From assembly GCF_035084215.1 (NCBI RefSeq), contig NC_090366.1:3472001-3536000 (forward strand): DNA of 64,000 nucleotides. The letters are read 5' to 3'. This stretch comes from Heptranchias perlo (Eukaryota). Both the position numbers and the translations under genes were made by a program. Below the pieces are notes generated by a model. It did not search any database. It saw nothing but the letters and a program-made list of their open reading frames with translations, and had not been told where the DNA came from. This document shows positions 5,797 to 47,723 of this stretch, piece after piece; the first letter of the stretch is position 1, and each line of letters starts with the position of its first letter.

Positions 5797-5839
5797 ATGA
5801 GGAGTTGCGTGTTTCTCTCTCTCATGAAATTGACAGACG
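5797..5839 (+). pseudogene. Copy 1 leader exon (MRSCVFLSLMKLTD)
   Basis: ATG plus 43 nt plus GTAAAT donor; paralogous to 33425. Confidence 0.75.
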
Positions 5840-6436
5840 GTAAATATATTTTAATAATAAATTCTGCAAAAAATGTTTCATATGTTGTGGGAACAGTACA
5901 GGGCAATTCTTTCTGCCAATGTTACGTGGCTGTTCATTTTAAATCCAGTGAAACAATTTCAATGGTTGTTTAGCGCATGCTTTATAGATGCTTTATTGCG
6001 TTTTATTTGCTGTTCAAATTATTTTTACTGTCTATTTTAATCCACGTTTCATATTATTTTAATTTATGCTTAATAAGTACTTTAATGGTCAATGGATGTG
6101 TAATATATAGCTTCGTTAATATTAAATATGCATTTATAACAATCTTATAGAACATTCACTTTCTGTTTTATGCATATCTATTCCGTGTTAATATCACTAT
6201 TACATTTGTATATTAGTCTTTCATAACACTGCTATCAAATAGGTATAATTATGGACATTTACATCAGCGTTTTGATCAGTATATTTTACTTGATCTTTAA
6301 AGGACATTTGAAATATTTGAATTGCTATGGTGATGGGCGATTATTTGTCAACGAACAAATACTTTAATAGATATTTTAGATATTACAATGGGTTTTGATT
6401 GGATACTTAAAAGATTGCTAATGTTATTTCTTTCAG

Positions 6437-6817
6437 TTGTTTGTTGTGATGAATGCACTGTGGTGATGCCAGATATTGTGTCGACAGTGTCGGGTTCATG
6501 TGCACAGATCCCGTGTACGTTTCATCATTCAGTCTCTGCCCCCAAGCCAAAGGGGAAGTGGTTCAAGAGCAGCCGTGATCCTCGTGGCATTGGGGACACC
6601 CTTATCTATCATTAGGTAAATCCATGTGGGCAGCCTTATAACTATGGTGGGAGAGCGGAGTTGAAGGACAACCTTACGCAAGGACAATGCTCCCTTTTGA
6701 TAAAGAATATCAGGAAGCGTGATGAGGGCACATATCACTTCAGCGTGCAAGTCCGCTGGGGCTGGCTTGTTAATAGATATACCACTGGCCGTTCTGAAAT
6801 CATCCTCTCTGTTTCAG
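6437..6817 (+). pseudogene. Copy 1 V-set exon with premature stop and dead donor
   Basis: GSCAQIPCTF..GQCSLLIKNI..DEGTYHFSV; TAG at 6613 where copy 2 has TCG. Confidence 0.9.
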
Positions 6818-8236
6818 TTGAGTTTTTCCTTTGTTTCTTTTCGACATTTTATTCCAGTGCTTAAGTGTGAATCAACCAACGTGTGAAGTGGACACATTTT
6901 GTGATGTCGCCGGCCGAACTCAAAGGGTAGTTGCAACACTGGTGAGGAGATACGGATAAGCAGTGCAATGGTTCATATCCTAAGGACAGAAATATATGGA
7001 AATGACAGCAGTAAAACAGGCCGTACAGCCCAACCAGTCCGTGTTGCTGTTTATTCTCCACATGACCAGCACTCCTAATCGCCTCCGCCTGGCCTGTTCC
7101 CATATCCCTTTATTGCCATTCCCTTTAACCAACTTATTGTTAAGTGTTCACATAATGATAGAATTTCAACTTGTTGGCCGAAACGTAAAACTGGCGGTGC
7201 GGGTCGTCCGCATAATATAGAAACCAACAGATCTAATTGTTCATTGAAATAAAAGGATATGTAAATCGGGCGGATGCTGGAATGGGCGCCTGATGTGGGA
7301 CCCCAGTTTTGACCCCGGCGGCAAGTTCAGGTTCAGTCTGTTTCGATCTCCTCTGTCCATTTGCTTCATAGGTTTAAACACTTCTGTGTAAACCTGTTTT
7401 GTCCTGATGAGTTCTGCCACAATTTTATAAGGCATACCTCATATGTGTGCTTCTTCATACCAGGCAGAATCCAAGCGAATCCGCCCTTTAGCCTTCCTCT
7501 AGAGCAAAAACCAAAACTCGCTTTCTTATTCCAACTGAGAACTAACTATGGTTCTCTTTCAGAGCTCCATCACATCTCGATTTTTATTTTGTACATATTC
7601 TCAGCACATGGTATTTAATTAGATCCGAATGGATAAGTACATTTTAGAGTAATGTTAAAAATGTGTTCACGCTGCCTCAGTTATTTGTTGATTCTGATGT
7701 CATGTCGCCGAAATGATATTCCTACGGAAAGCTTAATGCGTTTTACACGAGAGTAAACTGCTGCGGTTCTCCGACATAGGACTATGTTGCCACTCGTTTA
7801 CCTGGCCTGTCCATTCTTGAGCATCATTTTTCTGTACTGAAGTTCGTTTGCAACAGAATCTGGGAACACTCTGATCTGCATTAGTCACAATCACACTTGT
7901 TGCTTATATCTAAACATCTAACGTTGATTCTAACTTCTGCCTGCAAGACTGGTTCACTGGACTGCAGCTATTAGATCCATTATATTAATAATATACGAGA
8001 TAAAACGACTGATGGTTATTTAAGTGAGGCCATATATTATCATTTGAGGCAGCAAACTATTTTATAACTGCGAGGAGTAATTCAGAGTAGCGAATCAACT
8101 TGCGACACATAAAAGACAAAATGCGATTTATTGTTTTAACTCTTTGTCAGATTTAGATGGAAGTGCTGCTTCAGGCCACTCCCCGGTTTTAAGATTGAAA
8201 TTACCCAAATACGCCTGTTTGCTCATGTTCTTACAG

Positions 8237-8548
8237 ACAAGCCACATATTCCAGGTTATGGGGAACTGACTTCTGGAAAAGCAGCAGGACTGAGCTGTTC
8301 AATCACTCACAGCTGCCCATATGACAAACTGCAACTGAGGTGGATTGATTACAATGGGTCCCTTCCTCTTCCATGGGACACTAAAGATGGACCAGAAATT
8401 GTTAATGAACGTTCCGGTACTTGGAGAGTTTCATCGGCGCTCACGTTCACTCCATCATCCGCTTTTCGTGAGAGAAGTCCAGAATGCTCAATTTTACTAC
8501 AAGGCTCCCCAATTTCTTCTCCACAAATTCTTACCTTGCAGCTCAAAT
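8237..8548 (+). pseudogene. Copy 1 C2 domain 2 exon
   Basis: Open 312-nt exon LSCSITHSCPYDKLQLRW, flanked by AG and GT. Confidence 0.9.
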
Positions 8549-9172
8549 GTAAATGTCTGCTCTGAAGTTAATATCCCTCAACTGTCGGCCGACTGGTTCA
8601 ACAATTTTCCTTCCACCATCAGCAATTTATTACAGGTTTAGGACAGCATCAAAGAATGTACCGAGAAACCTCCGTCTCTATGCCGTGAGAGCTCACTTGG
8701 ATAATAAGTGAATCGGAGTGGCTCTCAGCCAATTCTTGTCAGTCAGATTATTTTGTGAATATTCACATCGATGAATTAATGTTGGTGGCTCCAAGAGTTT
8801 GGTTTATGCCATTGTTAATTGCTATTCTGAGATCTACCAGTAAGGTTCTGAGTTCAGTCAGTCATGAAGGGATACAAAAATGCCAAGGCGAGTGAGTATC
8901 TGAAGCTGGTTTCAGCTATGACAGCAGATATCAGCTCTGGTTGGGCTTCAGAATTCACCTGAATGATGCATCATTGTTAAAGTACGTACGCCACAAGGAG
9001 ACATAATTCGAAGAGGGAGGTAAATTCTCGAAGATAAATATTTTTGTTGTAACATTAAATTCTGGGGCAGTAAAATAAGAAGTTTGCAATTTAGACGCGG
9101 CCTCTTACCCAACATAATGATTTAATTATAATCTATATCATGCTTCACGTTTTGCATTATTGCCTGTTTCAG

Positions 9173-9430
9173 ATGGACTGGAAAACCCAACCGTCAATTC
9201 CTCTACAGTAGCGGTGGAAGGCAGCTCATTATTATTATACTGCACGGCATGCGGAAAACCAGCTGTCAGTTTAAGATGGGTGAAAAATGGTGAAGAGATC
9301 AGGACATCTTCCACCAATGAACTAAAGCGGAAATTCCACAACATTAGTTTTGAAGATGACGGTGAATATTGGTGTGTGGCTGAAAATAAGCTGGGCACCG
9401 CAAACAGCTCCACACGGATTTCTGTACAAT
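9173..9430 (+). pseudogene. Copy 1 Ig domain 3 exon
   Basis: Open 258-nt exon with EDDGEYWCVAEN, flanked by AG and GT. Confidence 0.9.
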
Positions 9431-10049
9431 GTAAGTGTGCATGCATTTCTCAATTAGATATAAGCCTTTCAGTTCACAAACTCTCGATTAAAACCCACGT
9501 TTCTCTTTACCGCTTGCACTAACGCGCCAATGTAATATGAGCTTGGTATTGTGTCATCCCTTCCTTTTGGACATAGTGCAAAGCAACCTCGATATTTCCA
9601 ATAATGGAAACAAACCTGGCCAACTCGTTGAGGGTGACAGTTGTAGAATGTGCACAATTTGACATAAATGCAGCAGGAAGTACCCTCCTGATTGGGACAG
9701 AAGTGCATTTACTGGGAGCTTTACTCTAACTCTAACAGTTTATGAATAATACTGGCATTCTAAAATAAACAAGCCTCCATTTCTTAGAACCGACTTCCCT
9801 CATTTTGCTGAGCAGGAATTCGCCAAAAAATATCGAATAAATGTGGTGGTAACTTACGCTCTGTTACTGGATTACTGTTCAGTTAACAATGTAATATTCA
9901 GGGACACCATCCTTTGAACTGTTGCCCTGTTAGCTGGTTATCGAGAAGTATCACGTCAGGCCAGCACAATGGAAGGTGTTTAATGCAGTATTTATGCACC
10001 ACAAATGTTTGACATAATCATTTCACACTGAAGTCTCTGTTTTTTTTAG

Positions 10050-10343
10050 ATTAACCCACAATTGTATCAGGCCCGACCTGCAACAGCTCTCAGAATTGGA
10101 CTGATTGTAACTGCAGTGTCACAGCCAATCCACCAGCAAACATTACATGGAACGTCAATGGAAGTATCATCACTGAGAACAGGTCAGACGTGGAATTCAT
10201 CTCGTGGGCTGTGAATAGTTACCTGGTGCAGAGCTCCCTGACACTGGCACACCCAACTCGAATTGGAACTGGAATTCAAATTTCATGTGTTGCAGCAAAC
10301 GTGCACGGTGATTGTGTCAGCAAATACCAGCTCCACTTTGAGG
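10050..10343 (+). pseudogene. Copy 1 Ig domain 4 exon with nonsense codon
   Basis: AAA>TAA in the first full codon of the exon (10052-10054); the rest is colinear with 37580-37873. Confidence 0.88.
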
Positions 10344-10392
10344 GTACATGTTGAATTTACCTGTAATTTGAATGCAGTTAGAGAGTTGGTCC

Positions 10393-10553
10393 AACATAAG
10401 AATATAAGAACATGAAAAATAAGAGCAGGATTAGGCTATTCGGCCCCTCGAGCCTGCTCCGCCATTCAATCAGATCATGGCTGATCTTCGACCTCAACTC
10501 CACTTTCCAGCCCCATCCCCATATCCCTTGATTCCACTAGAGTCCTATAATCT
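10393..10553 (-). mobile_element. CR1 3' tail in copy 1 intron 5
   Basis: aacataagaa tail and gcctgctccgccattcaat hairpin. Confidence 0.8.
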
Positions 10554-10746
10554 CTGCTGGTCATCATTAGCCCGTCATTAACTCTTTGGATCAGCAGGAT
10601 GTGGCGAATATAATCCCTAATTTTTGATTAGCTTTATGATCCGAACATGAAGGAAATTTCTTCCTCATACTCACATATGTGTTTCCAAGATTGGTGTATT
10701 GGCCCCAATGCACTAATGAAAATTAATGTATTTTCCGACATTTTAG

Positions 10747-10846
10747 GAATATTCTTATTCTCCTGGACAAACATCTTCAAAATAGGAGGAGGAGCCTGTT
10801 GCCTAATTATTGTAATTGCAGTCGTTGTCACAGTGAAGATACAAAG
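10747..10846 (+). pseudogene. Copy 1 transmembrane exon
   Basis: GIFLFSWTNIFKIGGGACCLIIVIAVVVTVKIQR, with AG and GT flanks. Confidence 0.85.
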
Positions 10847-12391
10847 GTATGTATGTTTCTTAACTGCATAGACTGGAGAATAAATTAGACAACTTTAAAG
10901 GGTACCCTGCGTCAGAAAGACTATGTATCAGAAACTCGTTTAAATCATCACTCACTGAGGATAGTGATCATCTGTCTGAATTGGAGCAGTGTGTTGAAAG
11001 TAGGAGCGTCAATCGTTCCCTGAACAGCCTCTCGTCTCCCAGCATCAAACACAGAGTAATATTAGTGGCTGCTTGATTCCGGCTTCCTGTACATTCTTCC
11101 TGTTACAAGATTGGTGCTTTGTTTCGTTATGTTTAACCTGGTCATTTTTGGACTTCAGTCTCTCGGTCTGCTCGCGTGGCTGATCGCTCGAGCCCTATGT
11201 CCCAGGTAGTGTTTTCCCCTCCTCTGTAATCTGGGTAAAGTTTGTCGCCTGCCCAAGCAATGGACAGGCGACAATAGAATCGCCGTCAGTTTCCGTCAGG
11301 CGATGCTAATATTGGGCCGCCCCGCGCAAGCCTCCTTGTCATGGGAAGATCTCACGATAAAATCACACTAGAATTTTACTTAGACTTCACTGATCATGTA
11401 ATTTCATTGGTCAGTTAAAAAACAAACAAATAGTATAAGGAACGTGACACATTTTTACAGGAATTGTTAAGGTTGCTTGGCTCCAGGAGTAGAAAATTAT
11501 ATTCATGAATGGGGTGCGACTGATGTGGTAAGTTATGCCAGAAATGCATTATGCAGCGGTCTTTAACTTATTCTTAGCCGTAACATAAGTTATTTTGTCG
11601 GTCTCGCTCTCTTTGAAAGATCCACTCAAACTCCCTGCTTTTAAATCGTCATGCTGATATTTAGCTTCAAAGAGGTGTCCGGCTCCAATTGACTTCAAAT
11701 AACCATGTGTTCGGTAAACCATGAGTTGCCAATCAAAGTTACCCTTGCACAAATCAGACAGAATGTTTGTATTTAAAATGAATGATATAGCTCCAACGAT
11801 AGGTGGAGGCCGATAACAACCAATGATCGGCAACAATCTTTGTAAAATGAGATTGTGTGAATTGTTCAAGCTTTTAACCCCTCGTGTACCATGACATAAT
11901 TAAAAAGCCAAGTACGTCCCAAATAATACCAAAGTGCATTTTTCAGAGATACTATAGAAGGATCTCAGAACGATTGATGAGGAATATTGATCGATTCCGC
12001 GATTCAAACTCCAATGGGTTGGAACCATCTACATGATAATAGAGAGGAACGTGTTTGCAGATTGAAACTCGACCTGATATTTAACAAGGTGCTGCATATT
12101 TGAATACACCTCCTCTGTATCTTATTTAGCACAATCAATCTTCACCCAGTGCAGACAGCACAACGTCATTAATGACCTTCATCCATCAAGAAAAGTTCTC
12201 TTTTGAAATGTGCTCAGGTGGATAGTTACATGAAATGATTTGAGACCTGATCTGTGCTCATCAGGAAACCGAAACGACACAAGCCTCTCATGACCAATTG
12301 AGTTCCTTCATCGTACAGGCACAGCATAGTTTACGTAAATTTATTCCAATTAATTACGCGAATTGCATCATTGGTATTTATTATTATTTAG

Positions 12392-12479
12392 GAAGAAACA
12401 AAGTGAAGCTGTGTGTGCCTCGGAAACGGATGATAATTCGGTGACCTACGCTGTGGTACAGAACGCACTGAACGCTATG
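12392..12479 (+). pseudogene. Copy 1 cytoplasmic exon 7 (VTYAVV), donor lost
   Basis: Colinear with 40330-40417; GT replaced by TT. Confidence 0.82.
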
Positions 12480-12929
12480 TTAAATGACGCCACGCTGGAC
12501 TGACATTTGTAGGAGTTTAATTGTGTTTTCAGCCAGCAAGTGACACAAAGCAAGCAAAACCCAACAGATAAAAGGAAGTTTCAGAAACTTAGTGGCCGGT
12601 GTTTTTGAGGGAGTAACAACGTCTTCACGCCGCTAAGAGTGAAACATTCCTCCAGACTCTGTACGCAGTGACCAAGTGAATGGGATTTGGGAGAGTTTCT
12701 CACGTTGGCATTTCTGATCAAACCAAACTCATTTCATAGAATGAGTTTCTTATCTCACAGACAGAGTCCAGAAGATACTTTACCACCACCCCTTTGACAT
12801 TAGGTCTCATGGTTTACATTTTCAACAAGTTCACAGGGTTCAACAATATTTACAGGTGTCAGGACGCAGAGGGGATAATACATTGCAGATACTCAGAATT
12901 ATTTGCAATTTCCGAACTGCATCTTGGTG

Positions 12930-14240
12930 TCGATGTGGCTCAGTTGTCCCTCACCTTTGAGTCAGAAAGTTGTGCTTTGTTCTAACACTCGAATATATAA
13001 TCTAGGTTGAAACTTCAGTGCAGTACTAAGGGAGTGTTACCATGTCAGTGTAGGATTTAAAGCCCAACTTTCAGGATGATATTTTAATCCAATCCAAGGA
13101 CTGGTTCGTGAAAACAAGACCACCACGGTACTGGTATTCTGGTTAAAGGCAAAACAGATATATTCACCACATCACAATTAGTACGAAGAAAGTGATACTT
13201 AACAAAGAGAAATAGACACAGTCTGTTCCTTGAAACCTTGGAAGTATCCCTCCAAGTGACTGCGGCACGGTCTCTCTCTCTCTCTCTCTCTCTCCCTTGC
13301 TGTGTTCTGTTGACTGAAGAGTTCTCTTCTTCCTCGCCAGAATCTTGCGCGCCTTCCTCAGCCTTTGAGGTCTCTTCTTATACCCTTTTTCTGTCCATGT
13401 GGCAGTTCACTATCACATCCACATCATTAATCATGATTACCATTAATCATGTCTCTCACCCTTAAGAAGTTACATTCCCAGCAACTCCTTGTACCATCTG
13501 TGCCTTTTTGTTACAGACTTAACATACTTTATTTTAGAGTTTGCATTTCCAGGCTTCACAGGAACCGCTGTACAAACACATTTGTATTCACGAGCTTGCT
13601 GGGGCTCGAGATAGAGAGGCCTGAGCCTGGGTGATTCCTTGATTTATTTCACCTTCAGTTCCCTTATATACATGCCTTTTGGACATTATGTTATTAAGGT
13701 AAATCCTCCCTCAGCAGCTGTGATTTTCCCCAAGGTCTGTTAATTCCCACTTCAATACTGTCTTAGAGTTCTGTTAGTTTTAATTGCAAACTTGACTTTA
13801 ATAACAATGATACACCCTTCTCGGCCCACCAGCAATTTATTATTGAATACACGTTACATAGTTCATACTATATTAATACGCAGTACAATTTTCATTTATA
13901 GTTACATAGATTCATAATACATTTCATTCTACTTCTGCTATTGATTGTAATTATTCTATATTATATCAGTTATTGGGCTAATTCCTACATCAGTGGTTCA
14001 ATTTTTTGGATGTGACTTTAAACCAAGGCCCGGTTTGCTGCTGCTTGTGAAGGTAAACGATCTCATGGGACTATTGTAGGAACAGAAGAAAACACTTGCA
14101 GTGCCCATGCAAAAATGTTTCCCTCAATGGACACCATCTAAAACAGATTAATTCGCCATTTGTCTGAATTACTGTGGCTGCATTCTTCTGCACAGTGACG
14201 ACACTTCAAATTTATTCATTTCATGGCAATGCCTACGTCT
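12930..14240 (+). mobile_element. Degenerate SacSINE1-like DeuSINE split by a solo LTR
   Basis: Head gtggctcagttg..gagtcagaa..cagtgcagtact resumes at ~13990 (ggatgtgactttaaaccaaggccc); same family as 60571-61013. Confidence 0.65.
13049..13989 (-). mobile_element. Solo LTR (941 bp), 4-bp TSD TCAG
   Basis: TGTAGGA..TCCTACA terminal inverted repeat; TCAG at 13045-13048 and 13990-13993; minus-strand TATAAG near 13380. Confidence 0.8.
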
Positions 14241-14244
14241 TATC

Positions 14245-14895
14245 AATCATAGAATCATACAGCACACGAGGAGCCAATCAGTTCATTGTACCGGTGCCGG
14301 ACATTTGAAAGACCTACCCACATAGTTTCACATCCCCCTGCTCTTGCCCATCGCCCTGCAAATTTTCTCTTTTTCAAGTATTTAAAAAATTCCAATTTGA
14401 TATTTTCAATTGAATGTGCTTCTCCCATGCTTTCATGCAGTGCATTACAGATCATAACAACTCGCTGCTTTAAAAAAATCCCCTTAACTCCCTTTTAGTT
14501 CTTTTAACGAATTATCGTAATTCTGTGTCCTCTGGTTACCGACCACCCTACCAGTTGAAACAGTTTTTCCTTATTTACTCCATCAAACCCCTTCATAATT
14601 TCGAACACCTCTCTCAAATCTCACCTTAACTTTCCTGGCTTTATGGAGAACAATTCGAGCTTCTCTAGTCTCTCCGCATAACTGAAGACCCACATCCCTG
14701 CTATAATTCTGATACATCTCCTCTGCACCCTTTGCAAGGCGTTGACATCCTTCCTAAATTGTGGTGACAGAATTGGGCACAATACTCCAGCAGGGGCCTA
14801 ACCGGTAATTTCATTACTTTGATACTCTATGCCTCTATTTATTAAGCCCAGGATCCCGTATGTTTTTGACATCCTCATCAACTTATCCTGATATA
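14245..14895 (-). mobile_element. CR1 3' fragment (shared with ~42836-43530)
   Basis: atcatagaatcatacagcac tail; decayed ORF2 C-terminus. Confidence 0.8.
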
Positions 14896-15078
14896 CAATT
14901 GTAAGTTCTTTCATTCTTGCATGAACACATCAAAACGCTCAACTCATTGATCAGGGCCAATAGAAAACACCCAGAGATACGACAACGTAAATTGCTCTGG
15001 AAAGGACAGCACACTCCAATTTCGCTCAGTTCATATGCGCAGTAGCGCCATATCTAAGACAAATGCCTTTCGTTCCAG

Positions 15079-15246
15079 AGCGACATTCAGTATACCGACG
15101 CTGGTCTTGACGCTTTGATATCGACCAAACCAGCTCAGATGGAAAAGTTTCTGTACGCAACTATAGACATCTCTAACTTCCGCAAACAAGAAGGATATAT
15201 CCAAAATGAGGAGACCCGCGAATACGCAACAATAAAACATAATTAA
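15079..15246 (+). pseudogene. Copy 1 terminal exon (FLYATI, REYATI)
   Basis: ttccag acceptor; open to TAA; colinear with 43714-43881. Confidence 0.82.
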
Positions 15247-28040: not shown

Positions 28041-28083
28041 ATGAAGAGTTGCGTGTTTCTCTCTCTCATGACATCGACAGACG
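28041..28083 (+). other. Orphan or alternative Siglec leader exon (MKSCVFLSLMTSTD)
   Basis: gccATG plus 43 nt plus GTAAAT. Followed by ~450 bp of copy-1-like intron 1 that stops at ~28530 with no V exon. Confidence 0.75.
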
Positions 28084-33424: not shown

Positions 33425-33467
33425 ATGAGGAGTTGCGTATTTCTTTCTCTCATGACATTGACAGAAG
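33425..33467 (+). CDS. Siglec-like copy 2 exon 1 (signal peptide MRSCVFLSLMTLTE)
   Basis: gctATG start; 43-nt exon ending at phase-1 donor g|GTAATT; paralogous to leaders at 5797 and 28041. Confidence 0.75.
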
Positions 33468-36400
33468 GTAATTTTCTTCAAATTTTGCTAATTGCTACAA
33501 AAGGTGATTTAGCTCTTGTGGGGAGAGAATAGAACACTCCTTATAGAAATGATTTTCGGTTATTGATTTTAAAACAAGTGAAATTGGAATTTCATGACTG
33601 TTTGACGCGTTATTTATCGGTGTTTAACTACTATTCAAAAGTCTTTAAATATTGGGCATTCCAAATTATATTTAACGAGTATTTTAATTCATATTTAATG
33701 AGTAATTCAAAGGAGAATCAATGGGTGTTGAATGCATATCTAAGTCAATTTTAAGGAAATTCACTTTCATTTTAATGAATATGTATTCTGTTTCTGATGC
33801 GTACTATATATGTATATTATTGGTACATAAACGCCCTATGAAATAAGCGCTAATATGAGTATTTCAATAGCTCATTTGATTGATATTTAATTAGTATTTT
33901 ACGTTATTAGGAAAAGGCTTTAAATGATATTTAAATTGCTACTTTGATGGGGGATTACTTGTGAATTTATAAATAATTTAATAAATCTTTACGATATTTC
34001 AATTGACTTTGAATGAATACCTAAAGTGGGTCAAATGTTTATTTTTCTCTCAGTTGTTTGTAATATTCAATGGTCTGTGGTGATTCCAAAAAGAGTTTCG
34101 GCAGTGTTGGATTCGTGTGCACTGATCCCGTGTACGTTTGGTCAACCAGTCCATAACGCCAGGCCAAAGGGGAGGTGGATAAAGACGGGCTCTGGTCATT
34201 GTAACCCCGGGGATTCAGTTGTCTACAGTTCGAGAGATCCACACGGGCAGCGTTATAATTATGATGATAGAACTGAGCTCAGGGGCGACCTTGCGAAAAG
34301 TCAATGCTCCATATTGATCAACAACACCAGAAAGAGTGATGAGGGTACTTACTGCTTCATCGTGGAAATCCCCGGGGGCTTGCAAAGTAGTACATATAGC
34401 ACTGGTGGTTCTCAAGCCCTTCTTTCAATTTCTGGTGAGTTTTTCTTTCCTTATATTTTTGTTCAGTGAGAAGCAACCTATGTGCAAACTGGACCCATTT
34501 TGTGGTGTGCCCGGCCGAAATCAAAGGGAGGTAGGGATGAGAGACACAGTGGTTCATATCCTAAACACAGAAATGTACAGAAATTACAGCAGTGAACCAG
34601 GCCGTTCGGCCCAACCAATCCCTGTTGCTCTTTAACTTCACTTGAGCAACACTCCTAATTCCATGTTCCTGGCCTGTTCCCAACTCCTTTTATTCCCATT
34701 TCACTTCAACCATCTTTTCTTTAAATTTCAAATGAGGGTAGATTTTCAGCTTGTTCACTGAACGTAAAACTGGATTTTTTTTGTCGTCCCCGTAAGAAGG
34801 AAATCAACAGATCTTCATGACCATTGAAATAAAAGGAAATGAAAATCTGGCGGTTGCTGCAATGGACGCCTGGTCTGGAACGCCAGTTTCCATTCGGGCG
34901 CCCAACTTGAAAATCTATCCCAGTTTGTTTCTATTCTCCTGTCCCTTTGCTTCATAAGTTTAAATACCTCTATCAAAGATTTATTGACATTGAATTGTAT
35001 CTGCCTCTTATTTCAACATTCTCCATTATTCCCTTGCAACTCCGTTTAGTTCTTGGAGTTACTTACTGTGTTGAACGTTCAACTTTGGCCTGAGTGTTAA
35101 AATGCCGGCATCGGATGACCCTCTAATTAAACACCCATATTCCTTTCCGTGGAATCCAATGGAAAATAACATCGGGTGGAATGTGTTATCCGCGGAGAAT
35201 CCGATTCTACCCCTTATTCTTCATTTTCAAACATTAAAGTTACATCCTGGATCTGCTATCAATTAACCTCACGAAATTTGGACATCACTCCCTCTATCGC
35301 TAAAACCAAATTATCGATGGTCTGTCCATTTCTTGAGCGTCATCTTTCTCGTTTAAGTTCATTTGCAACAGAATCTGCGTTCCCTCTGACCTGCATTAGT
35401 CACCATCAGAATTGTTGGTTATATTTAAAGATCTAACGTTGATTTTGCGTTTAGCTGCAAGGCTGTTTCATTGGACTTTCGGTTTCCGATCCATAGTATG
35501 AATAACATGGGCGATTCAACGACAGGTGGTTAATTAAGTGAGGCCATATATTGCCGGCTGAGGCATTAAACTACCTTATAAGTTCAAGGAGTAATTCAGG
35601 ATAGCGAACTTACCAGCAACACATAACAGAAAAAGCAGAAGAAAATGTGATTTTTAAATTCTTTGTCAGATTTAGTTGGAAGTGCTGCTTCAGGCCACTC
35701 GCTCGTTTTAAGATTGAAATGATCGTCATACGCCCGTTTGCTCCTTTCCTTGCAGACAGGCCAGAAATTTCAGTTGATGGGGAATTGACTTCTGGAAAAA
35801 TAGCTCGACTGACCTGTTCGATCATCCACAGCTGCCCATATGACAAACTGCAACTGAGGTGGATTGATTACAATGGGTCCCTTCCTCTTCCATGGGATAC
35901 TGAAGATGGGGAAGAAATTGTCAATGAACCCTCCGGTTCTTGGAGAGTATCATCGGTGCTCATCTTCACTCCATCATCTGCTCATGACGGGAAAAAACTA
36001 GGATGCACAATTGTACTTAATGGGTCGCCAAGTTATTCTCCACAAACTCGTACCTTGGAGATTAAATGTAAGTCTCTGCTCTGAAGTAAATAGACGGAAC
36101 CTGTGGTCCAACGGGTTGAAAAGCTGTCCTTCCACCGATAGCAATTTATTAAAGGTTTAGGACCGCATCAAAAAAATACACCGAGAAACCTCCGTCTATG
36201 CCGTGAGAGCTCAAGTCGATAATCAATTAATCTAAATGGCACTCAGCCAATCCTTTAGAGTGAGAATATTTTTTTGGAAGATTAGTCTTGTTAATTCTTA
36301 TCCTAATCTGATCTTGTGAGTTTAGTCGGTCATAAAGGGATACAAAAAAGGCTATGGCGAGTCAGGGTCTGTAGCTGGTCTCTGCTTTGATCCCAGAGCT

Positions 36401-39400
36401 CAGCTATGGTTGGGCCTAAGAATTTGGCCAGAATGGGTTCCCAGTGTCAGCGTACTAAGGTGCCACCAAGGAGACAAAAGAAGAGACAGAACATTTTCCA
36501 AGAAAATCATTTTTAGTGTAAGATTTAAACTTCACGAGATTCAGACACGATCTCTTACCCAGTATAGTGATTTTATTAGGGAGTAATCATGCTTACTCAA
36601 TATTCACGTTTTGCAATACTGCTTGTTTCAGATGGACTGGAAAATCCAACCGTCAATTCCTCTATAGTAGCGGTGGATGGCAGCTCATTATTATTGTACT
36701 GCACGGCATGGGGAAAACCAGCGGTCAGTTTAAGATGGGTGAAAAATGGAGAAGAGATCAGCACATCTTCCACCAGTGAACTAACAAAGACATTCCAAAA
36801 TATTAATTCTGAAGATGATGGTGAATATTGGTGTGTGGCTAAAAATAGCCTAGGCACCGCGAACAGCTCCACACGGATTTCTGTAGAATGTAAGCGTGCA
36901 TGCATTTGTCATTTAGATAGCAGTGTTTCAATTCAGGAACCGTCGACTAGAACCTAAGTTACTCTTTCCTGCTTGAGGTGAAAGCGTCAATGTGAAATGA
37001 GCTTGGGATAGTTACACCCATTCCTCACTTTAATGAGCAGAAATTTGCGAAAACATAACTAATAAAACGGTGCTAACCCAAGATCTGTCACGTGTATTAA
37101 TGTTGAGTTAAAAATGTAATATTCAGAAACACGGTCCTTTGAATTGTCGCCCTGTTAGCTGAACATCAATAGAACGAACGCATCACAAAGCAAGGTGTCA
37201 GAAAAAATATACCTGGTGAAGAATTTGAAATTAATTGACCCTTTAGAACACTGACAGGTGAGACGCGTTGGTGGGTATGTTGTACAGAATTACCAGTCTG
37301 AGATTGCTCCCTCTGAGGAATCCCCCACAACATCTGTCAGGAGTAGTATGTATGGACTGAACATTCATTGGATCCAAAATGAAGTTGTAATAAAGTGCAA
37401 ACTTGTTTTCAGTGAAAACATAATAAGCGACAAACCTGGTGTGGCATCGGCTGCTTCTTATTGAAATACAATCTGCCAGAACCTGTATGGTTAGTTTAAT
37501 AACTGAAATAATTGTATTCAGACAGTGCAACTGTTTGACATAATTATTTCACACTGAAGTCTCTGTTTTTTTTCTGTAGATAAACCCACAATAGTATCAG
37601 GCCCGACCTGCACCAGCTCTGAGAACTGGACTGATTGTAACTGTAGTGTCAGAGCCAATCCACCAGCAAACATTACATGGGGCCTCAATGGGAGAATCAT
37701 CACTGGGAACAGATCAGATGTGAAAGTCAACTCTTGGTCGATGAAGAGTTATCTGGTGCAGAGCTCACTGACACTGACTCACCCAACTGGAACTGGAACT
37801 GGAATTCAAATCTCATGCGTTGCCGCAAACGTGCACGGTGATTGTGTCAGTAAATACCAGCCCCCTTCTGAGGGTAAATGTTCAATCTATCTGTCATTTG
37901 ATTGCTGTAAAGGAGTTGGTGCATCACTGGCCAGTCGCTCACTGAAGGCTTTCAGCGTCAGCAAACACCAGCTCCATTCGGCAGCTTAATATTGAGTCCA
38001 TGTCAAATTACGTAACGAGGTCTTTTCAGCAGTGGCCAATCACCAATTGAAGGCTAAGGTCGGCATTATCCATTTTAAAATTCAGTCTTCTGAAATTTGC
38101 CGCGTTTAAATTTGGCAAGATTAGGTGAAGCTTTCTGTACAGTACAAATAGTCGGTGATCTTGAAAAAACAACTTCTTCTGAATTAAGATCAAACCTTTG
38201 TAAATTACGGTTTCCTCTCACCATCGGATATCAAACTGCAACGTACCCTTTTGTGTATACAAGCTCATTTCAATCTTGTTCAGACTCATCTGCGCATAGA
38301 AGGCCAGTATTTCATAATCTATGAGAAATTGAATCATCTGCATAGATTATTGCTCTTTCAGCTGCATCTCGTGATGTTGGCTGAATTATATTCTGATTAA
38401 ATTATGCCCATTGTTTCTTCCGAGTGTGGGACATACTGAAGGATTTGTCAAGTGCACTCATTTTTTCAAATGTGATTTGTACGCTACAGATACGAAATCA
38501 ATCTTAAATTATTGATTACATACTTATACCAGGACGCCACGCAGGAACAAATTGTTTCTACGCAAGGATCCGCAGGATGGGCCGAATATAATCCCTGATT
38601 TTCCATTAACTGTATGATCCGAACATGATGGAAGCTTTCATCCTCATACTCATGAATGTTTTTCCAGGATTGGTGTTTTAATCCCAATATAATAATGTAT
38701 ATCCATTTTCCAACATTTTAGAAATATTCTCCTGGACAAATATCTTCATAATAGGAGGAGGAGCCGCTGGCCTTGTTATTCTAATTGCAGTCGTGGTCAC
38801 GGTGAGGAGACAAAGGTATGAGTGTTTCTTAATTGCATAAACTGGAGGTTTATTCAGACAAGTATAAAGTGGACCTTGCATCAGAAAGACTATGTAACAG
38901 AAACTCGTTTAATAACCACCCACTAAGAACAGTGAGTCTGAATTGGAGCAGTGTGGGGAGGGGCAATCTTCCCCTGAACAGTATCTCATCTCCCAGCACC
39001 AACCACAGAGTAATATTAGTGGATGCTTGAATCCGGCTCCGTGTACATTCATCCTGTTACATTATTGGAGCTTTGTTTCCTTATGTTTAACTTGGTAATT
39101 TTTGGACTTCAGTCTCTCGTTCTGCTCGCGTGGCTGATCCCTCGAGCACTATATCGCAGGGAGTGCTTTAACCTCCCCTGAAATCTGGGTAAAGTTTGTC
39201 GCATGCTCAAGGAGTGGACATCGAATCGCGGTCTGTTTGTTTCAGCCGCTACGGTTATTGGGCACTCCCGCGCGAGCCTCCTCGTCATGGGAACGTCTCA
39301 GAATAACTTTGTACTCGAATTTTACTTAGGTTTTACTGATGAAGCAAAAATACATTACTTGTATATTATACTATTTGTTTGAAATTGTATAATTACACCA

Positions 39401-42400
39401 GTTGTTAAGTTTGTTTGGCTCCAGGAGTGGAAAATTAAATTTAAATTAGGGTGTAATTGATGTACAAAAGTATGATATCAGAAATTCATTATGTAGCGGT
39501 ACTCATCTTATCCTTACCAATTAATTAAACTATTTGGCCTGGCTAGTTTTCGTTGAAAGCCCCAGAAAAACTCACTGCTTTAAAATGGACAGATTGATAT
39601 TTACCTTCAGAAAGGTTACCGGCTCCAATATTCAAATAAGAATCTATTCGGTTCACCATGAGTTGCCAATCAAAGTTATCCTTCAATAAATCACACAGAA
39701 TGTTTATATGTGAAGTGAATGACGGGGTTTCTCCCATAGGCGGCTCCTGACAACAGCCAATAATTGGGAAACAGTCCTTACGGAATGAGATTTTTTGAAT
39801 TGTGCAATTTCTTATTCGTTCGTTGATCATGGCATAATGGCAGAAGCCAATTCCATGCGAAATAATGTAAAAGTGCTCCTTTCAGAGGCACAGAAGAAGG
39901 ATTTGAGTACGATTAATGAGGAATATTGATTCCTCATGTCAAACTCCAATGGCTTGAAGTCATCCACGTGATAATAGCGAGGAATGTGTTTCCACGTTGG
40001 AACTCTTCCATCTGCTATTTAATAAGGCGTTGCATTTTTAACATGCCCCCTCTGTCCTTTATTTAGCACAATCAAATTTCACCCAGTGCAAATAGCACTA
40101 AGCCATTGTCGAGCTTCATCGACAAAGAAAACGTTCTCTTTAGAAATGTGGTCACGTGGGAATTGAAAATAAATGTTATGAGGCCTAATATGTGCTAATT
40201 AGGAAACGTAAAGGAGACAAATCTTTCCTGAACTACTGACTTCCTTCATCGTACAGGTACAGCATAAATTACGTAAACTTACTTCGGTTAATTATGCAAA
40301 GTGCATCATTTATATTTGAGATTATTCAGGAAGAAACTTGGTGAAGCTGCGTATGTTTCAGAAACGGAAGATGATTCTGTGATTTACGCTGTGGTACAGA
40401 AAACACTAAACGCTGAGGTAAGTGAAGCCACGCTGGAGTTACATTTGTAGGATATTTATTTAGCTGTCAACGAGCAAGTGACACAAAGCAAGCAAAATCC
40501 AACAGATAAATGGAAGTTTCAGAAACTTGGTGGCCGTTGTTTTTGAGCTAATAGTAGCCTCCTCATGCCGCTAAGAGTGAAGCATTTCTACAGACTCTAA
40601 ATGTAGTGACCTAATAAATGGAATTAGGGAACTATTCTCGCATTGGCGTTCCCGATCAAATCAAACTCTTTGTAAAAGAATGAGTTTCCTATGTGATTAC
40701 ACACAGAGACCAGAACAGATAATGCCCCCTCCACTCTAACATTAGGATTCATGTGATAAATGTTCAACATTGAGAAAGATATATGTAAGACCAAAGTAAT
40801 TGGTTGGATAAAAGATAATTTTGCGGGGATGAGAATGGAACAAGGGAAGGTAAGGTGGGAAAAAATGACAGACAAAGAAATAGAACAGCAGTGCGAAATA
40901 TTTAAAATGGTGATCAATAGAGATCAGGAGAAATATATTCCTCCAAAAAACAAGATCAAACGAGCCAATAATCAAATACAATGGATGAATAAAGAGATAA
41001 GGATATAATTGAAATGAAAAACGTCATGTTCCAAGTACATACACAATAAACGAGAGGATGACAAAAGGGAAAACGAAGAGGGTAGGGAGGATACGTGTTA
41101 AAGAATGTAATTAGGGGAGCAAATAGGAACTACGAAATCAAATTAACAAGCAATATAAAAAGAAATAGTAAAGTATTCTCCAGACACATAAATAACAAAT
41201 GAAGAATCAGGATAGGTATAGTGCCAATAATGGATGCACAAGATAATATATGTAATGACAGTGGAATGGCAGAATATTAAGTAGTTTTTATCAGGGGGAC
41301 TAAGAAGAAGGATATGACTTTAGGAGAGGAGAACAAAACAGGTATAAAGGCAATTAAGATAGAAAGGCGGGAGATAATTGATAAATTGATCAAACTTAGA
41401 GAGAATCAGACTCCTCGTCCGGACAGATTGCATCCGTGTATAATAAAATATTTTAGGTAGAAGAAAGCAGAGGCACTATTATATGTATAAAACAATTCAT
41501 TAGTGATGGAATAGTGTCAGAGGACTGGCGGGCAGCTAATGCTTTTCCTGCATTTAAAAAGGGGGATAGAACAAGGCCATGGAACTAATGGCCAGTTAGC
41601 TTAACGTCGGTGGGAGGACAGATAATGGAAACTTTACGCAAAATTTAATCGAAAATCATCGAGAAAACAACAATATAATAAAGAATAGTCAGCACGGATT
41701 TCAGAAGGGAAAATCATGCTTGACCGACCTTACTGAATTTTTTGATTAAGTAACAGAAAGAGTAGAGAAGGTCATGTAGTAGATGTAATATATTTGAATT
41801 TTCAAAAGGTCTTCGATAATGTACCCACTGTAGACTAATGACCAAGATCAGAGCGTGTGAAGTCAGAGGACAGGTGGTAGAATGATTAGCAAGTTGGCTA
41901 CAAAACAGAAAACAGAGGGTAGGGATTAAGGGTAGCTATTCAAAGTGGCAAACGTTGGGAAATGATGATCCACAAGCATCGGGACTGGGATCACTGTTGT
42001 TCCCAATTTGCATCAACGATTTGGACTCGGGAATCGGAAGCATAATTTGAAAATTTGCAGATGACAAGAAATTACGGGTTACAGTTAACACAAGGGAGGA
42101 ATGTGTTAAATCACAAGAATGCATTAATAAACGTCCAGAATGCACGCCTAATTGGCAAACGAATTTCAAAATAGATAAGTGTGAGCTGGTGCGTTTTGTT
42201 ACGAAGAATAAGGAGGCCAAATATTGCTAAGATAGTAAGAGTGTGGATGGGGCAAAGGAATATGGGGGTACAGATACACGAATCAGTAAATGTAGCGCTG
42301 TAGGTTTATAAGGCCATAAAAACGGCACACCAAGCACTGGGGTTCACTTTCAGAGGTACAGAATTGAAAAGCAGATAAGTTATATTAAGCTTGTATCGAA

Positions 42401-43881
42401 CCTTGGCTGGATGACACTTCGAGTACTGTGCATAGTTCTGGTCTCCATATCACAAAAAGGAGGTAGAGGCACTGGGGAAGGTGCAAGAAAGGACTGACAA
42501 GGATGATACCAGAACTGAGAGGATATATTTATCAGGAAAGTCTGAACAGGCTGGGCCTCATTTCTATAGAAAAGGAAAGGTCGAGTGTTGACCAGGTAAA
42601 GGTCTTCAAGATTATGAAAGGGTTTGATAGGGTAAACGTAGAGACAATGTTTCCTCTTGTGGGGGAGTCCAAAACTAGAGATCATAAAAATAAAATAGTC
42701 GCGAATAAATTCAATATGGAAATCAGGCGTAATGTCTTTACCCAAAGAGAGGTAATTCACTAGTTGCTGCATTTTTCTACAACCTGAGACGGCACTTTAA
42801 TAGTTATTCATTGCATGGCAGTGCTTAGGTCTTCATAATCATAGAATCATACAGCACACATAAAGGCCATTCAGCCCATCGTGCCGGTGCCGGATCTTCG
42901 AAAAAGCTCTACAATTAGTCTCACTACCCCTGTACCTCCATCGCCACCCCACCATCTCTTGCACTTCCCCTATAGCACAGCAATATTTCTCCTTTCCAAC
43001 CATATATCCAATTACCATTTGTAAGTTACAATTCAATCTGCCTCCACCACGCTTTCATACAGTGCTTTCTCGATCACAACAACTCGCTGCGTAAAAACAA
43101 ATTCTCTTCAACTCCACTCTAGTTCTTTTTGTCAATTATCTTAAATGTGTGTCCTTTGGTTACCGACTCACCGACAGGAAAACAGTTTCTTCTTAGTTAA
43201 AAACCTTTCATAACTTTGAAGAAATCTATAAAGTCCACGCTTAACCTTCTCTGCTGTCAGGAGACCAATCCCAGCGTCTCTAGTCTCTACATATAAATGA
43301 AGACTCTCATCCCTGGCATAATTCGGGTACATCTCCTCTGCACCCTCTCCAAGGCTTTGACAACCTTCCAAAATGTGGTGCTCAGAACTGTACACAATAC
43401 TCCTGCTGGAGCCTCACGCATGATTTGTCGAGGGTTCGCATTACTCCGCTGCATCTGCCCTGTATGCCACTGTTGATAAAGCCCAGCATCTCGCATTTTT
43501 TTTAACGTCCTTATCAGCTTGTCCTGCTATGTAATTGCAAGTTCTTTCTTACATGCATGAAGACTTCACTGATCAACTCATGGATCGGGTGCAATAGAAT
43601 ACTACCAGAGATGCCATAATATGATTTGCTCTGGAAAAGACAACACAGTTCCATTTACGTTCAATTCATGTCCGTAGTAACTCCATATCTAACACAAATG
43701 CCTTTCGTTACAGAACGGTGTTCGGATTACAGCCCCTGGCCTTGGCATCACGAAATCAACCAAACCAGATCAGAATGAAGGGGTTCTGTACACATCTATC
43801 AATATCTCAAACTTCCGCAAACAGGAACGACCGATCCAAAATGAGGACACCTGCGAATATGCAAAAATAAAACATTGTTAA
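33425..43881 (+). CDS. Intact Siglec-like (MAG/CD22/CD33-related) inhibitory receptor, 545 aa; V-set + 3 C2-type Ig domains, TM, ITIM tail; lacks the essential Arg
   Basis: Hand-spliced join(33425..33467,34054..34434,35756..36067,36632..36889,37580..37873,38722..38815,40330..40417,43714..43881) = 1638 nt. All introns are GT-AG, phases 1,1,1,1,1,2,0, with no internal stops. Siglec Cys signature: SCALIPCTF ... QCSILI in V; CSIIHSCP in domain 2; MAG-like CxxxxxxxxCxC last domain. Tyr motifs VIYAVV, VLYTSI, CEYAKI. Confidence 0.88.
34054..34434 (+). CDS. Siglec-like copy 2 exon 2 (V-set Ig domain)
   Basis: tttttctctcag acceptor and g|GTGAGT donor; QWSVVIP..DSCALIPCTF..GRW..RTELRGDLAKSQCSILI..DEGTYCFIVEI. 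Confidence 0.92.
35756..36067 (+). CDS. Siglec-like copy 2 exon 3 (C2-set domain 2)
   Basis: ttgcag acceptor and t|GTAAGT donor; LTCSIIHSCP..LRW..SSVLIFTPSSAHDGKKLGC, typical Siglec domain 2. Confidence 0.92.
36632..36889 (+). CDS. Siglec-like copy 2 exon 4 (Ig domain 3)
   Basis: tttcag acceptor and t|GTAAGC donor; LYCTAWGKPAVSLRW..EDDGEYWCVAKN. Confidence 0.92.
37580..37873 (+). CDS. Siglec-like copy 2 exon 5 (membrane-proximal Ig domain 4)
   Basis: ctgtag acceptor and g|GTAAAT donor; GPTCTSSENWTDCNCSVRANPPANITW..ISCVAANVHG resembles the last domain of MAG/CD33-related Siglecs. Confidence 0.9.
38722..38815 (+). CDS. Siglec-like copy 2 exon 6 (transmembrane)
   Basis: ttttag acceptor and ag|GTATGA donor; IFIIGGGAAGLVILIAVVVTV followed by basic stop-transfer RRQR. 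Confidence 0.88.
40330..40417 (+). CDS. Siglec-like copy 2 exon 7 (cytoplasmic, ITIM VIYAVV)
   Basis: ttcag acceptor in phase 2 matching the TM exon; gag|GTAAGT donor; conserved in copy 1 (VTYAVV). Confidence 0.85.
40745..42765 (+). mobile_element. Old CR1 LINE in copy 2 intron 7
   Basis: Decayed RT (cagcacggatttcagaagggaaaatcatgcttgac; tttgcagatgac); absent in copy 1. Confidence 0.88.
42836..43530 (-). mobile_element. CR1 3' fragment
   Basis: Paralog of 14245-14895; ALERVQRRCTRIMPG. Confidence 0.8.
43714..43881 (+). CDS. Siglec-like copy 2 exon 8 (cytoplasmic, ITIM VLYTSI + distal CEYAKI, stop)
   Basis: cctttcgttacag acceptor in phase 0; open to TAA; same length and frame as the paralogous exon 15079-15246. 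Confidence 0.85.
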   Translation, partial: NGVRITAPGLGITKSTKPDQNEGVLYTSINISNFRKQERPIQNEDTCEYAKIKHC

Positions 43882-45031: not shown

Positions 45032-47723
45032 TGTAAGAACATAAGAACATAAGAACATAAGAAATTGGAGCAGGAGTAGGCCAATCGGCCCCTCGAGCCT
45101 GCTCCGCCATTCAATAAGATCATGGCTGATCTGATCCCAACCACAAATCTAAAGAACACAAGAAGTCGGAGCAGGACCCGGCCACATAGCCCCTGGGCCC
45201 TCTCCGCCACCCACAGGGCATTGACCGATCCGAACTCAGCTTCATGTCCAATTTCCTGCCCGCTCCCCATAACCCCTAATTCCCTTTACTTCTAGGAAAC
45301 TGTCTATTTCTGTTTTAAATTTATCTAATGATGTAGCTTCCACAGCTTCCTGGGGCAGCAAATTCCACAGACCTACCACCCTCTGAGTGAAGAAGTTTCT
45401 CCTCATCTCAGTTTTGAAAGAGCAGCCCCTTATTCTAAGATTATGCCCCCTAGTTCTAGTTTCACCCATCTTTGGGAACATCCTTACTGCATCCACCCGA
45501 TCAAGACCCTTCACAATCTTATATGTTTCAATAAGATCGCCTCTCATTCTTCTGAACTCCAATGAGTAGAGTCCCAATCTACTCAACCTCTCCTCATATG
45601 TCCGCCCCCTCATCCCCGGGATTAACCGAGTGAACCTTCTGTGTACTGCCTCGAGAGCAAGTATGTCTTTTCTTAAGTATGGAGACCAAAACTGTGTGCA
45701 GTATTCCAGGTGCGGTCTCACCAATACCTTATATAACTGCAGCAATACCTCCTTGTTTTTATATTCTATCCCCCTAGCAATAAAAGCCAACATTCCGTTG
45801 GCTTTCTTGATCACCTGCTGCACCTGCATACCAACTTTTTGATTTTCTTGCACTAGGACCCCCAGATCCCTTTGTGCTGCAGTACTTTCCAGTCTCTCGC
45901 CATTAAGAAAATAACTTGCTCTCTGATTTTTCCTGCCAAAGTGCATAACCTCACATTTTCCAATATTATATTGCATCTGCCAAATCTCCGCCCACTCACC
46001 CAGCCTGTCTATATCCCCTTGCAGGTTTTTTATGTCCTCCTCACTCTCTACTTTCCCTCCCATCTTTGTATCATCTGCAAATTTTGATATGTTGCACTCG
46101 GTCCCCTCCTCCAAATCGTTAATATAGATTGTAAAGAGTTGGGGACCCAGCACCGACCCCTGTGGAACACCACTGGTTACTGGTTGCCAGTCCGAAAATG
46201 AACCATTTTCCCCAACTCTCTGCTTCCTGTTTGATAACCAATCCTCCACCCATGCCAGAATATTACCCCCAATCCCGTGATTTTTTATCTTAAGTAATAA
46301 TCTTTTATGTGGCACCTTGTCGAATGCCTTCTGGAAGTCTAAATACACTACGTCCACTGGTTCCCCTTTATCCACCCTATACGTTATATCCTCGAAGAAC
46401 TCAAGCAAATTTGTCAGACATGACTTCCCCTTCATAAAGCCATGCTGACTTTGTCCTATTAAATTATGCTTATCTAAATGTTCCGTTACTGTCTCCTTAA
46501 TAATAGACTCCAAAATTTTACCCACCACAGATGTTAAGCTAACTGGCCTATAATTTCCAGCCTTCTGCCTACTACCCTTTTTAAATAACGGTGTTACATT
46601 AGCAGTTTTCCAATCTGTCGGGACCTCTCCTGAGTCCAGGGAATTTTGGAAAACTATCACCAAAGCATCCACAATCCCTACTGCCACTTCCCTCAAGACC
46701 CTAGGATGGAAGCCATCAGGTCCAGGGGATTTATCCGCCTTGAGTCCCATTATTTTACTGAGTACCATCTCCTGAGTGATTTTAATCGTATTTAGCTCCT
46801 CCCCCCCGAGAGTCCCCCGTTTGTCCAGTGTTGGGATATTCTTAGTGTCCTCTACTGTAAAGACTGAAACAAAATATTTGTTCAGCATTTTTGCCATCTC
46901 CATGTTTCCCACCATTAATTTCCCGGTCTCATCCTCTAAGGGACCTATGTTTGCCTTAGCCACCCTTTTTCTTTTTATATAACTATAGAAACTCTTGCTA
47001 TCTGTTTTTATATTTTTTGCTAATTTCTTTTCATAATCTAACTTCCCTTTCTTAATCAATCCTTTAGTTACTTTAAGCTAATGGCTTAAAACAAACATAC
47101 ACAATAGGAGGGCAAAAGTTCAGCATCTCCTTGAGGACAAGGACAATTCACACGGCAGAACATCAGGGAGACTATAGAATAGATAACATTAACGACAGAA
47201 GGTGGTTTACAGCTAAACAAAAGATGTGGTTGATATGAAACCGACATTGTTGGGGCCGTGCAAGGCCGAATAAGGGGGTTGTACTCAGCTGAGAAGTACG
47301 CATTCCTCAGAGGAACATAACAGCTTGTAAACAGAGATGGAGGTCGCAATCATTAGCTCCATTCGGTGAAACAGCTTATCTTGAGTTGCCATCATTGAGT
47401 CAACGCGGTGGGAGGACTTATGACCATTCGGTGCTTACGTAAAGATAGGGCATGCTCCCACCCAGAAAGTGAGAGTTCACAAGAGGGTACGGTTGGAAGT
47501 CCATCGGGTTGTATTGATTGCTTGTCATTTGATGTAATCTGTCGACAGTTGAATTATAACTATAATACCGTTGAATATAATGTTGATGCTGTCGTGCAAC
47601 TCTGTTGTAAGTCAATCTGCTAAACTTGTTATTTTATGATCACTCCGGCTGGAATCTATCAGGAGTTATTGTTGATGGATTAACAAACCATGGTTGCGAC
47701 AGTAACGGAGAAATCCGCTAACA
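45032..47723 (+). mobile_element. Solo LTR (~650 bp, body 47074-47723), 5-bp TSD AAGCA, interrupted by a young CR1
   Basis: Reconstructed ends TGTAAGC..GCTAACA; AAGCA at 45027-45031 and 47724-47728. Confidence 0.7.
45034..47073 (-). mobile_element. Very young 5'-truncated CR1 LINE with uninterrupted RT frame
   Basis: 605-aa open frame 45242-47059 with NYRPVSLTS, QHGF, LDFQKAFD, GVPQGSVLGP, FADD; (TAAGAACA)n tail; TAAG at both ends. Confidence 0.96.

Follow-up and report, generated by a model that had tools for sequence, protein, structure and literature searches.

What does a receptor of the Siglec family do once the residue that holds sialic acid has gone? The question is raised by a 64,000-nucleotide stretch of the shark Heptranchias perlo (NCBI RefSeq assembly GCF_035084215.1, contig NC_090366.1, forward strand, positions 3,472,001 to 3,536,000; hereafter the window), in which a four-domain Siglec-like gene carries an isoleucine in place of the sialic-acid-binding arginine. 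That essential arginine is the defining trait of Siglecs. The family is taken here as defined in PMC13324755; PMC8455134 and PMC13262535 mention Siglecs in passing. The evidence supports an intact, spliced gene that is not decaying and belongs to an old subfamily of shark and ray Siglecs without the arginine and with inhibitory motifs of the immunoreceptor tyrosine-based kind (ITIMs). Our estimate, at a probability of about 60%, is that this receptor binds a ligand other than canonical sialic acid on its former lectin face.

The missing arginine can be placed with some precision. In local alignments without gaps, Ile117 (motif DEGTYCFIVEI) falls on the F-strand Arg of sialoadhesin (Arg97) and of CD33, and it likewise aligns with the Arg of the MAG F-strand motif, confirming the codon reading of the initial annotation; the F-strand Arg essential to a functional Siglec lectin is absent from this gene. 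The cysteine pattern is that of a structural Siglec. Cys36, Cys41, Cys99 and Cys168 fit it, with Cys41/Cys99 (the B-E pair) and Cys36/Cys168 (the V-to-domain-2 pair) aligning with their counterparts in MAG and CD33 as predicted bonds, and the canonical F-strand cysteine site holds Phe116. Cys36, Cys41 and Cys99 are among the eight columns conserved at 90% or more in 80 aligned relatives. Sialoadhesin and CD33 are the best PDB sequence matches of the V domain, which also matches Siglec-5, -8 and -10. An AlphaFold (AF2) model built from an 80-row alignment has a mean predicted local distance difference test score of 79.9, with strand 112-120 predicted well, and its best structural matches are MAG and then CD22 (Foldseek E 3e-30; structure comparison, VIA Z 23.1, root-mean-square deviation 4.3 over 308 aligned residues). 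Residues 20-334 align to MAG domains 1-3 and residues 250-418 to MAG domains 4-5. One variable domain followed by three C2 domains and an ITIM tail had been put forward as an unusual layout, a point that falls away: the ectodomain is that of MAG less one stalk domain, and the number of immunoglobulin (Ig) domains among relatives runs from 2 to 4 or more, with domain 2, domain 3 or both absent. On these comparisons the protein is a Siglec by descent and fold that fails as a lectin on the arginine, and from the known role of that residue we infer that it does not bind sialic acid in the canonical way.

The open 545-aa gene with Siglec cysteines described by the initial annotation holds up in full. 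Eight exons with GT-AG introns encode a product without an internal stop that is completely identical to the NCBI protein XP_067831324.1 (P0001 in our set) of H. perlo; this entry is labelled a Siglec-13-like protein, and the gene is thus already annotated, by automatic name only. Pfam scores exceed the cut-off for V-set (42.9 bits) and Ig_CD22 (31.2 bits). The order of an N-terminal V-set domain, C2-type Ig domains and one transmembrane segment is that of Siglecs, and the cytoplasmic ITIMs with an uncharged transmembrane segment are those expected of the inhibitory members. The ITIM consensus occurs at aa 478-483 and 514-519, and a third, distal Tyr lies at 539. In four runs from one sample, none of them registered as RNA but presumed to be so because their contigs join exons and leave the paralog's introns uncovered, six of the seven exon junctions are joined across GT-AG, although the later exons resemble those of paralogs so closely that junction contigs there may derive from paralogs. 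At the seventh junction (38815 to 40330) the contigs hold only loose ends of 12-15 letters. A single 301-base contig, spanning 34234-35855 across the junction of the V domain and domain 2 with 0 mismatches, includes the Ile codon, which places that codon in a spliced transcript. An RNA contig also uses an alternative acceptor (38815 to 40257, 73 bases upstream of exon 7), and this junction would shift the frame, end the protein at 489 aa and remove the normal ITIMs.

The loss extends well beyond this gene. Protein searches found relatives in other elasmobranchs. Of 314 V-domain hits, 67 rows entered a quick tree, which excluded near-duplicates, most unnamed rows and the frameshifted L015, and a subset of 50 entered a bootstrapped tree; the Arg column was removed in both, and the trees hold no mammalian CD33-related sequences. 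One branch of 20 of the 50 rows (ultrafast bootstrap 96, Shimodaira-Hasegawa-like approximate likelihood ratio test 91) joins 8 rows from this genome to 12 from ten other species, giving 11 shark and ray species overall. The sharks are Heterodontus (three rows) and Scyliorhinus canicula, S. torazame, Carcharodon, Cetorhinus, Chiloscyllium, Stegostoma and Pristiophorus (one each); the rays are Narcine and Hypanus (one each), one ray row having a long branch. Arg is found in none of the 20 rows (Ile in 12, Ser in 5, Phe, Leu and Thr in one each), and Ile accounts for 10 of the 12 rows from the other species. Among the 17 nearest rows outside the clade, 11 carry Arg, which implies further scattered losses there. 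ITIMs were present in 10 of the 13 annotated clade proteins checked, and the V domain lies inside an elasmobranch group (100/98) and outside the MAG branch. With rays within the clade, loss of the arginine likely predates the shark-ray split. That split lies some 270-300 million years back. A second Arg-less pair, L026 and a sawfish protein (P0129) with Tyr at the site (support 100/99), appears to mark another old and independent loss in sharks and rays; L026 and L027 lie at C45:13642012-13697794.

These results bear on how the loss had first been read. A subfamily trait, not decay, is what the 20 Arg-less V domains in 11 species, the open frame and the spliced RNA indicate, and none of the clade members surveyed across paralogs and species retains Arg. 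The proposed "shark-lineage" expansion was right about an Arg-less, ITIM-bearing subfamily and too narrow in scope, the clade being older and wider with two rays inside it. The argument from a second copy in the window did not survive. Its AGC codon does read Ser at the Arg site, but the copy is a pseudogene, with a TAG at 6613-6615 in the V domain and a V-exon donor that reads TT, and cannot by itself carry a subfamily argument. No junction contigs were found on this copy in the four runs, which is not counted as silence. The N-terminal Trp described as kept is present here (Trp21), as is the other pocket aromatic, Tyr129, but the Trp is not a kept feature of the subfamily; the clade's FG loop is longer and variable, and the G-strand register of the aromatic is therefore unsure.

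Substitutions within the V domain, counted by the Nei-Gojobori method, point to where this subfamily is changing. Strand geometry served to separate the 43 positions of the former ligand face from the remainder of the domain. When this gene is compared with L003, its closest intact paralog, the proportion of non-synonymous change on the face (pN) is 31/86 = 0.36, against a synonymous proportion across the V domain (pS) of 7.5/87 = 0.087 (p = 1.8e-5), or about four times the synonymous rate, and the excess persists without the FG loop (20/61, p = 3.6e-4). Divergence in three introns of this pair is 0.11-0.13. The face is also in excess in L004/L006 (p = 2e-4) and L005/L008 (p = 0.005) and marginal in L001/L002 (p = 0.051). 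In three pairs, none of the C-strand residues that point inward has changed. The stalk domains have a pooled ratio of non-synonymous to synonymous rates (dN/dS) of 0.50-0.58 in four pairs with intact genes, consistent with purifying selection. Among Arg-bearing sister pairs, none of five exceeds the synonymous rate on the face without the FG loop (p 0.11-0.94). Neutral decay does not predict that one face should change faster than neutral sites.

The remodelled face also bears two cysteines that the initial annotation did not mention. Cys64 (CC' loop) and Cys115 (F strand) were gained together and co-occur, in the 67 rows, only in this gene and L003. Cys115 precedes the Arg site by two residues and is aligned to a non-canonical F-strand Cys of TIM proteins, and a CC'-loop Cys is likewise available as in the Ig V domains of TIM-1 and TIM-3. 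We predict an extra Cys64-Cys115 disulfide that would fix the CC' loop next to the old pocket, and in TIMs the extra disulfides are reported to bring the CC' loop closer to the FG loop (PMC12862622). The analogy is local: a TIM combines the canonical Ig disulfide and four additional, non-canonical Cys with a metal site and a mucin stalk, whereas the shark protein has the Siglec B-E disulfide and a C2 stalk, and lacks the features that define a TIM. As a separate observation, Cys replaces the A-strand Trp (window 34071-34073) in 10 of the 20 clade rows, apparently unpaired, and could link dimers.

How might such a receptor work? It would act as a Siglec-family immune brake through its two ITIMs, probably on the surface of leukocytes, as Siglec biology suggests. 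The vacated V face would bind a different, fast-changing ligand, most plausibly a protein or a non-sialylated structure. Clustering by that ligand would lead to phosphorylation of Tyr480 and Tyr516 and recruitment of SHP-1/SHP-2, as in known Siglec signalling, while an arms race would reshape the face, either to track a variable ligand or to escape microbes that exploit the brake. A precedent is a bacterial protein reported to bind the V domain of Siglec-5 but to leave the chimpanzee form unbound (PMC2722167). A broader scenario, which we advance tentatively and at slightly less than even odds, is that before the shark-ray split one Siglec lineage quit sialic acid and gave rise to variable inhibitory receptors, KIR- or CEACAM-like, whose lectin face is positively selected for a non-glycan ligand (for instance a protein of a pathogen or a polymorphic marker of self), beside the independent Tyr lineage.

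It should be noted that several observations weigh against a new ligand on this face, or against its novelty. Across the whole V domain dN/dS is 1.0-1.8, not significantly above 1, with dN-dS intervals that include zero, and two of the four stalk intervals include zero where the other two exclude it. The face partition was drawn after the alignment had been seen, the compared pairs share ancestry and are not independent, and gene conversion can bias pS (in L001/L006, 0.10 on the face and 0.33 elsewhere). Arg-bearing sister pairs diversify as well, in the FG loop in 3/5 (p < 0.05) and over the whole face in 2/5, and a face may change fast through escape alone, without binding any ligand. The non-face V positions of this gene and L003 (16.5/191 = 0.09) have pN about equal to pS. 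Only 2 of the 20 clade rows keep Trp21, the second pocket residue, with Cys in 10, which also speaks for the new-ligand reading; the pocket has thus been lost to a greater extent than this one gene would indicate, and the Trp found here may have been regained. Six of the nine Arg-less copies in the genome are damaged by a stop or frameshift (L002, L004, L005, L007, L008 and L015). Arg-less Siglecs are already known in primates. Finally, this gene has both Arg55 and Arg87, and Siglec-6 is reported to bind sialylated glycolipids without the canonical Arg (PMC10122656).

This last pair of observations opens the possibility, which we consider unlikely, that an anionic glycan, sialylated or sulfated, is still bound through the C-strand Arg55 or through a secondary site as in Siglec-6. 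Position 55 immediately precedes the C-strand Trp and is basic (Arg/Lys) in 12 of 20 clade rows, compared with 1 of 36 Arg-bearing rows; by Ig geometry it would be the cross-strand neighbour of 117. Arg87, on the D strand, is nearly invariant in the 80 aligned relatives, and Trp21 and Tyr129 are retained here. The Siglec-6 site is supported by a conserved Arg (PMC10122656) whose equivalence to Arg87 would be our inference. The initial annotation had named another Arg in the carboxylate pocket as a result that would count against it, and Arg55, near the pocket, is a candidate for it; it is not conserved, however, being Trp in the closest intact paralog and hydrophobic or Gln in seven other clade rows, it belongs to the fast-changing set, and in the 5 independent pairs available a basic residue at 55 does not co-vary with Arg loss (sign test p = 1). 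Less probable again is a ligand-blind brake, in which losing the Arg served as an escape from sialylated pathogens, signalling is tonic or driven by crowding, and shedding microbial binders is the sole reason for change on the face. Primate Siglec-XII is described as competent to signal yet unable to bind sialic acid, and the Arg of great-ape Siglec-5/14 is mutated (PMC6288428), and rapid change of the face with many pseudogenes would fit escape; Ile is nonetheless held in most of the clade rows from other species, and sharks and rays alike keep the V domain with an intact core, something that a domain without use would not require. That the gene is simply a redundant copy, its binding residue lost on the way to a pseudogene, seems very improbable. 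The damaged copies and the near-neutral non-face V positions would suit it, but the clade largely refutes it, the loss being common to 11 species; frame, splice sites and ITIMs are intact, the transcript is spliced, a single face gathers the change and exceeds the neutral rate, and Arg-bearing neighbour genes are damaged about as often. A ligand other than canonical sialic acid on the former lectin face remains the preferred reading.

Among known systems, MAG (Siglec-4; PDB 5lf5, 5lfr) is the best match in sequence and fold, with domains 1-3 and the CxC membrane-proximal domain aligning and an identical cysteine pattern. The shark gene differs in having four Ig domains in place of five, about 25% identity, no canonical Arg, a longer FG loop, two ITIMs and a multi-copy family, and lacking both the fifth Ig domain and a grouping with MAG it does not qualify as a MAG ortholog. 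A fish MAG-like V domain as query found nothing above 39% identity among 51 candidates in the genome, which is not taken as absence; the assembly may lack the true MAG, or the search may have missed it. CD33-related Siglecs resemble the shark genes in their clustering, rapid turnover and V-domain matches, and they differ in that Arg is absent throughout the shark clade. Like the gene here, they carry an ITIM and a distal Tyr motif in the last exon of the inhibitory tail, and human Siglec-5 has four Ig domains, equal to the count here. As a further difference, no partner with a charged mid-membrane residue was found among the 22 proteins checked. Fish genomes were said in 2020, on teleost data, to lack inhibitory CD33-related Siglecs (PMC7226832). 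The closest functional parallels are human Siglec-XII (R122C) and chimpanzee Siglec-5 and -14, Arg mutants reported not to bind sialic acid (PMC6288428), in which the essential Arg is replaced with the signalling tail intact. Those losses are recent and confined to single lineages, and Siglec-XII null alleles are common, while the shark loss marks a shark-and-ray clade with Ile retained. Among the titles and abstracts listed from the openly available literature, none reports on Arg-less shark Siglecs.

Table. Features of the Arg-less Siglec-like gene and related elements, in window coordinates
Feature	Position	Strand	Description
Exon 1	33425..33467	+	Start codon, signal peptide (aa 1-14); RNA contig joins to exon 2
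Exon 2	34054..34434	+	Siglec-type V-set domain, aa 15-141; Pfam
Trp21	34071	+	Exon 2
Cys36	34116	+	Exon 2
Cys41	34131	+	Exon 2
Arg55	34173	+	Exon 2
Cys64	34200	+	Exon 2
Arg87	34269	+	Exon 2
Cys99	34305	+	Exon 2
Cys115	34353	+	Exon 2
Ile117 codon (ATC)	34359..34361	+	Site of the sialic-acid-binding Arg; alignments and spliced contig
Exon 3	35756..36067	+	Ig domain 2; aligned to MAG domain 2
Cys168	35833	+	Exon 3; predicted partner of Cys36
Exon 4	36632..36889	+	Ig domain 3 (I/C2 type), 258 nt, skippable in frame; missing from several relatives
Exon 5	37580..37873	+	Membrane-proximal Ig domain, CxC motif; homologous to MAG domain 5
Exon 6	38722..38815	+	Uncharged transmembrane segment, about aa 437-457
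Exon 7	40330..40417	+	Cytoplasmic tail; first ITIM, Tyr480 at 40385
Exon 8	43714..43881	+	Second ITIM (Tyr516, 43789), distal Tyr539 motif, stop
AATAAA	44245		Downstream of exon 8
Paralog pseudogene	5797..15240	+	8-exon plan as in the intact gene; Ser at Arg site
Paralog Arg-site codon	6742-6744		AGC = Ser
Orphan exon 1 copy	28041..28082	+	No V exon found behind

Other elements of the window are of more local interest. About 1 kb of sequence upstream of the orphan exon 1 is similar to the promoter region of the intact gene. A 611-codon open frame at 45245-47077 on the minus strand encodes the reverse transcriptase domain of a LINE-type (long interspersed nuclear element) retrotransposon, with many broken copies in the window, one of them inside intron 7. 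A short repeat in a paralog intron (10432-10535), probably a SINE (short interspersed nuclear element), has very high contig depth in all four runs.

The gene sits in a large family. In a V-exon search of the genome, 36 of 54 candidates matched; contig C45 holds all 36, 8 of them with internal stops. Of 30 retained as loci, 17 carry Arg at the site. Of the nine Arg-less copies, three have exons open throughout, namely this gene (Ile), L003 (Phe) and L006 (Ser); among the damaged ones, skipping of exon 4 could restore L004 and L005, and an NCBI model of L005 (P0007) does skip it. Two blocks on C45 (3.42-3.65 Mb and 10.24-10.47 Mb) mirror each other in order and orientation, running from Arg-less (+) to Arg-bearing (-) in one and from Arg-bearing (+) to Arg-less (-) in the other, and a third lies at 13.1-14.0 Mb. 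The mirrored blocks (C45:3420000-3650000 and C45:10240000-10470000) resemble a large inverted duplication; an inverse duplication reportedly lies behind the mammalian CD33-related cluster, going by the title of Cao 2009. Also on C45 are a Siglec-like gene with six Ig domains and Thr at the Arg site (10331537-10342593, minus strand) and a sialoadhesin-like V exon (13744327), and C14 has two further V exons of Siglec-like type near 64.3 Mb. The NCBI protein P0002 (1547 aa) fuses the six-Ig gene, a 7-transmembrane receptor and the L003 gene, and is probably an annotation artefact.

If the preferred reading is true, the subfamily would represent a long-lived second use of the Siglec fold, with the loss kept in sharks and rays and the face still diversifying; the Arg losses known so far are recent primate accidents. 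At least 36 Siglec-type V exons on one chromosome, many with ITIM tails, stand against the teleost-based view of fish and bear on a wider question, namely whether the ancestor of jawed vertebrates already had expanded clusters of inhibitory Siglecs. The presence of Arg-bearing and Arg-less sister genes within one genome makes the ligand question directly testable.

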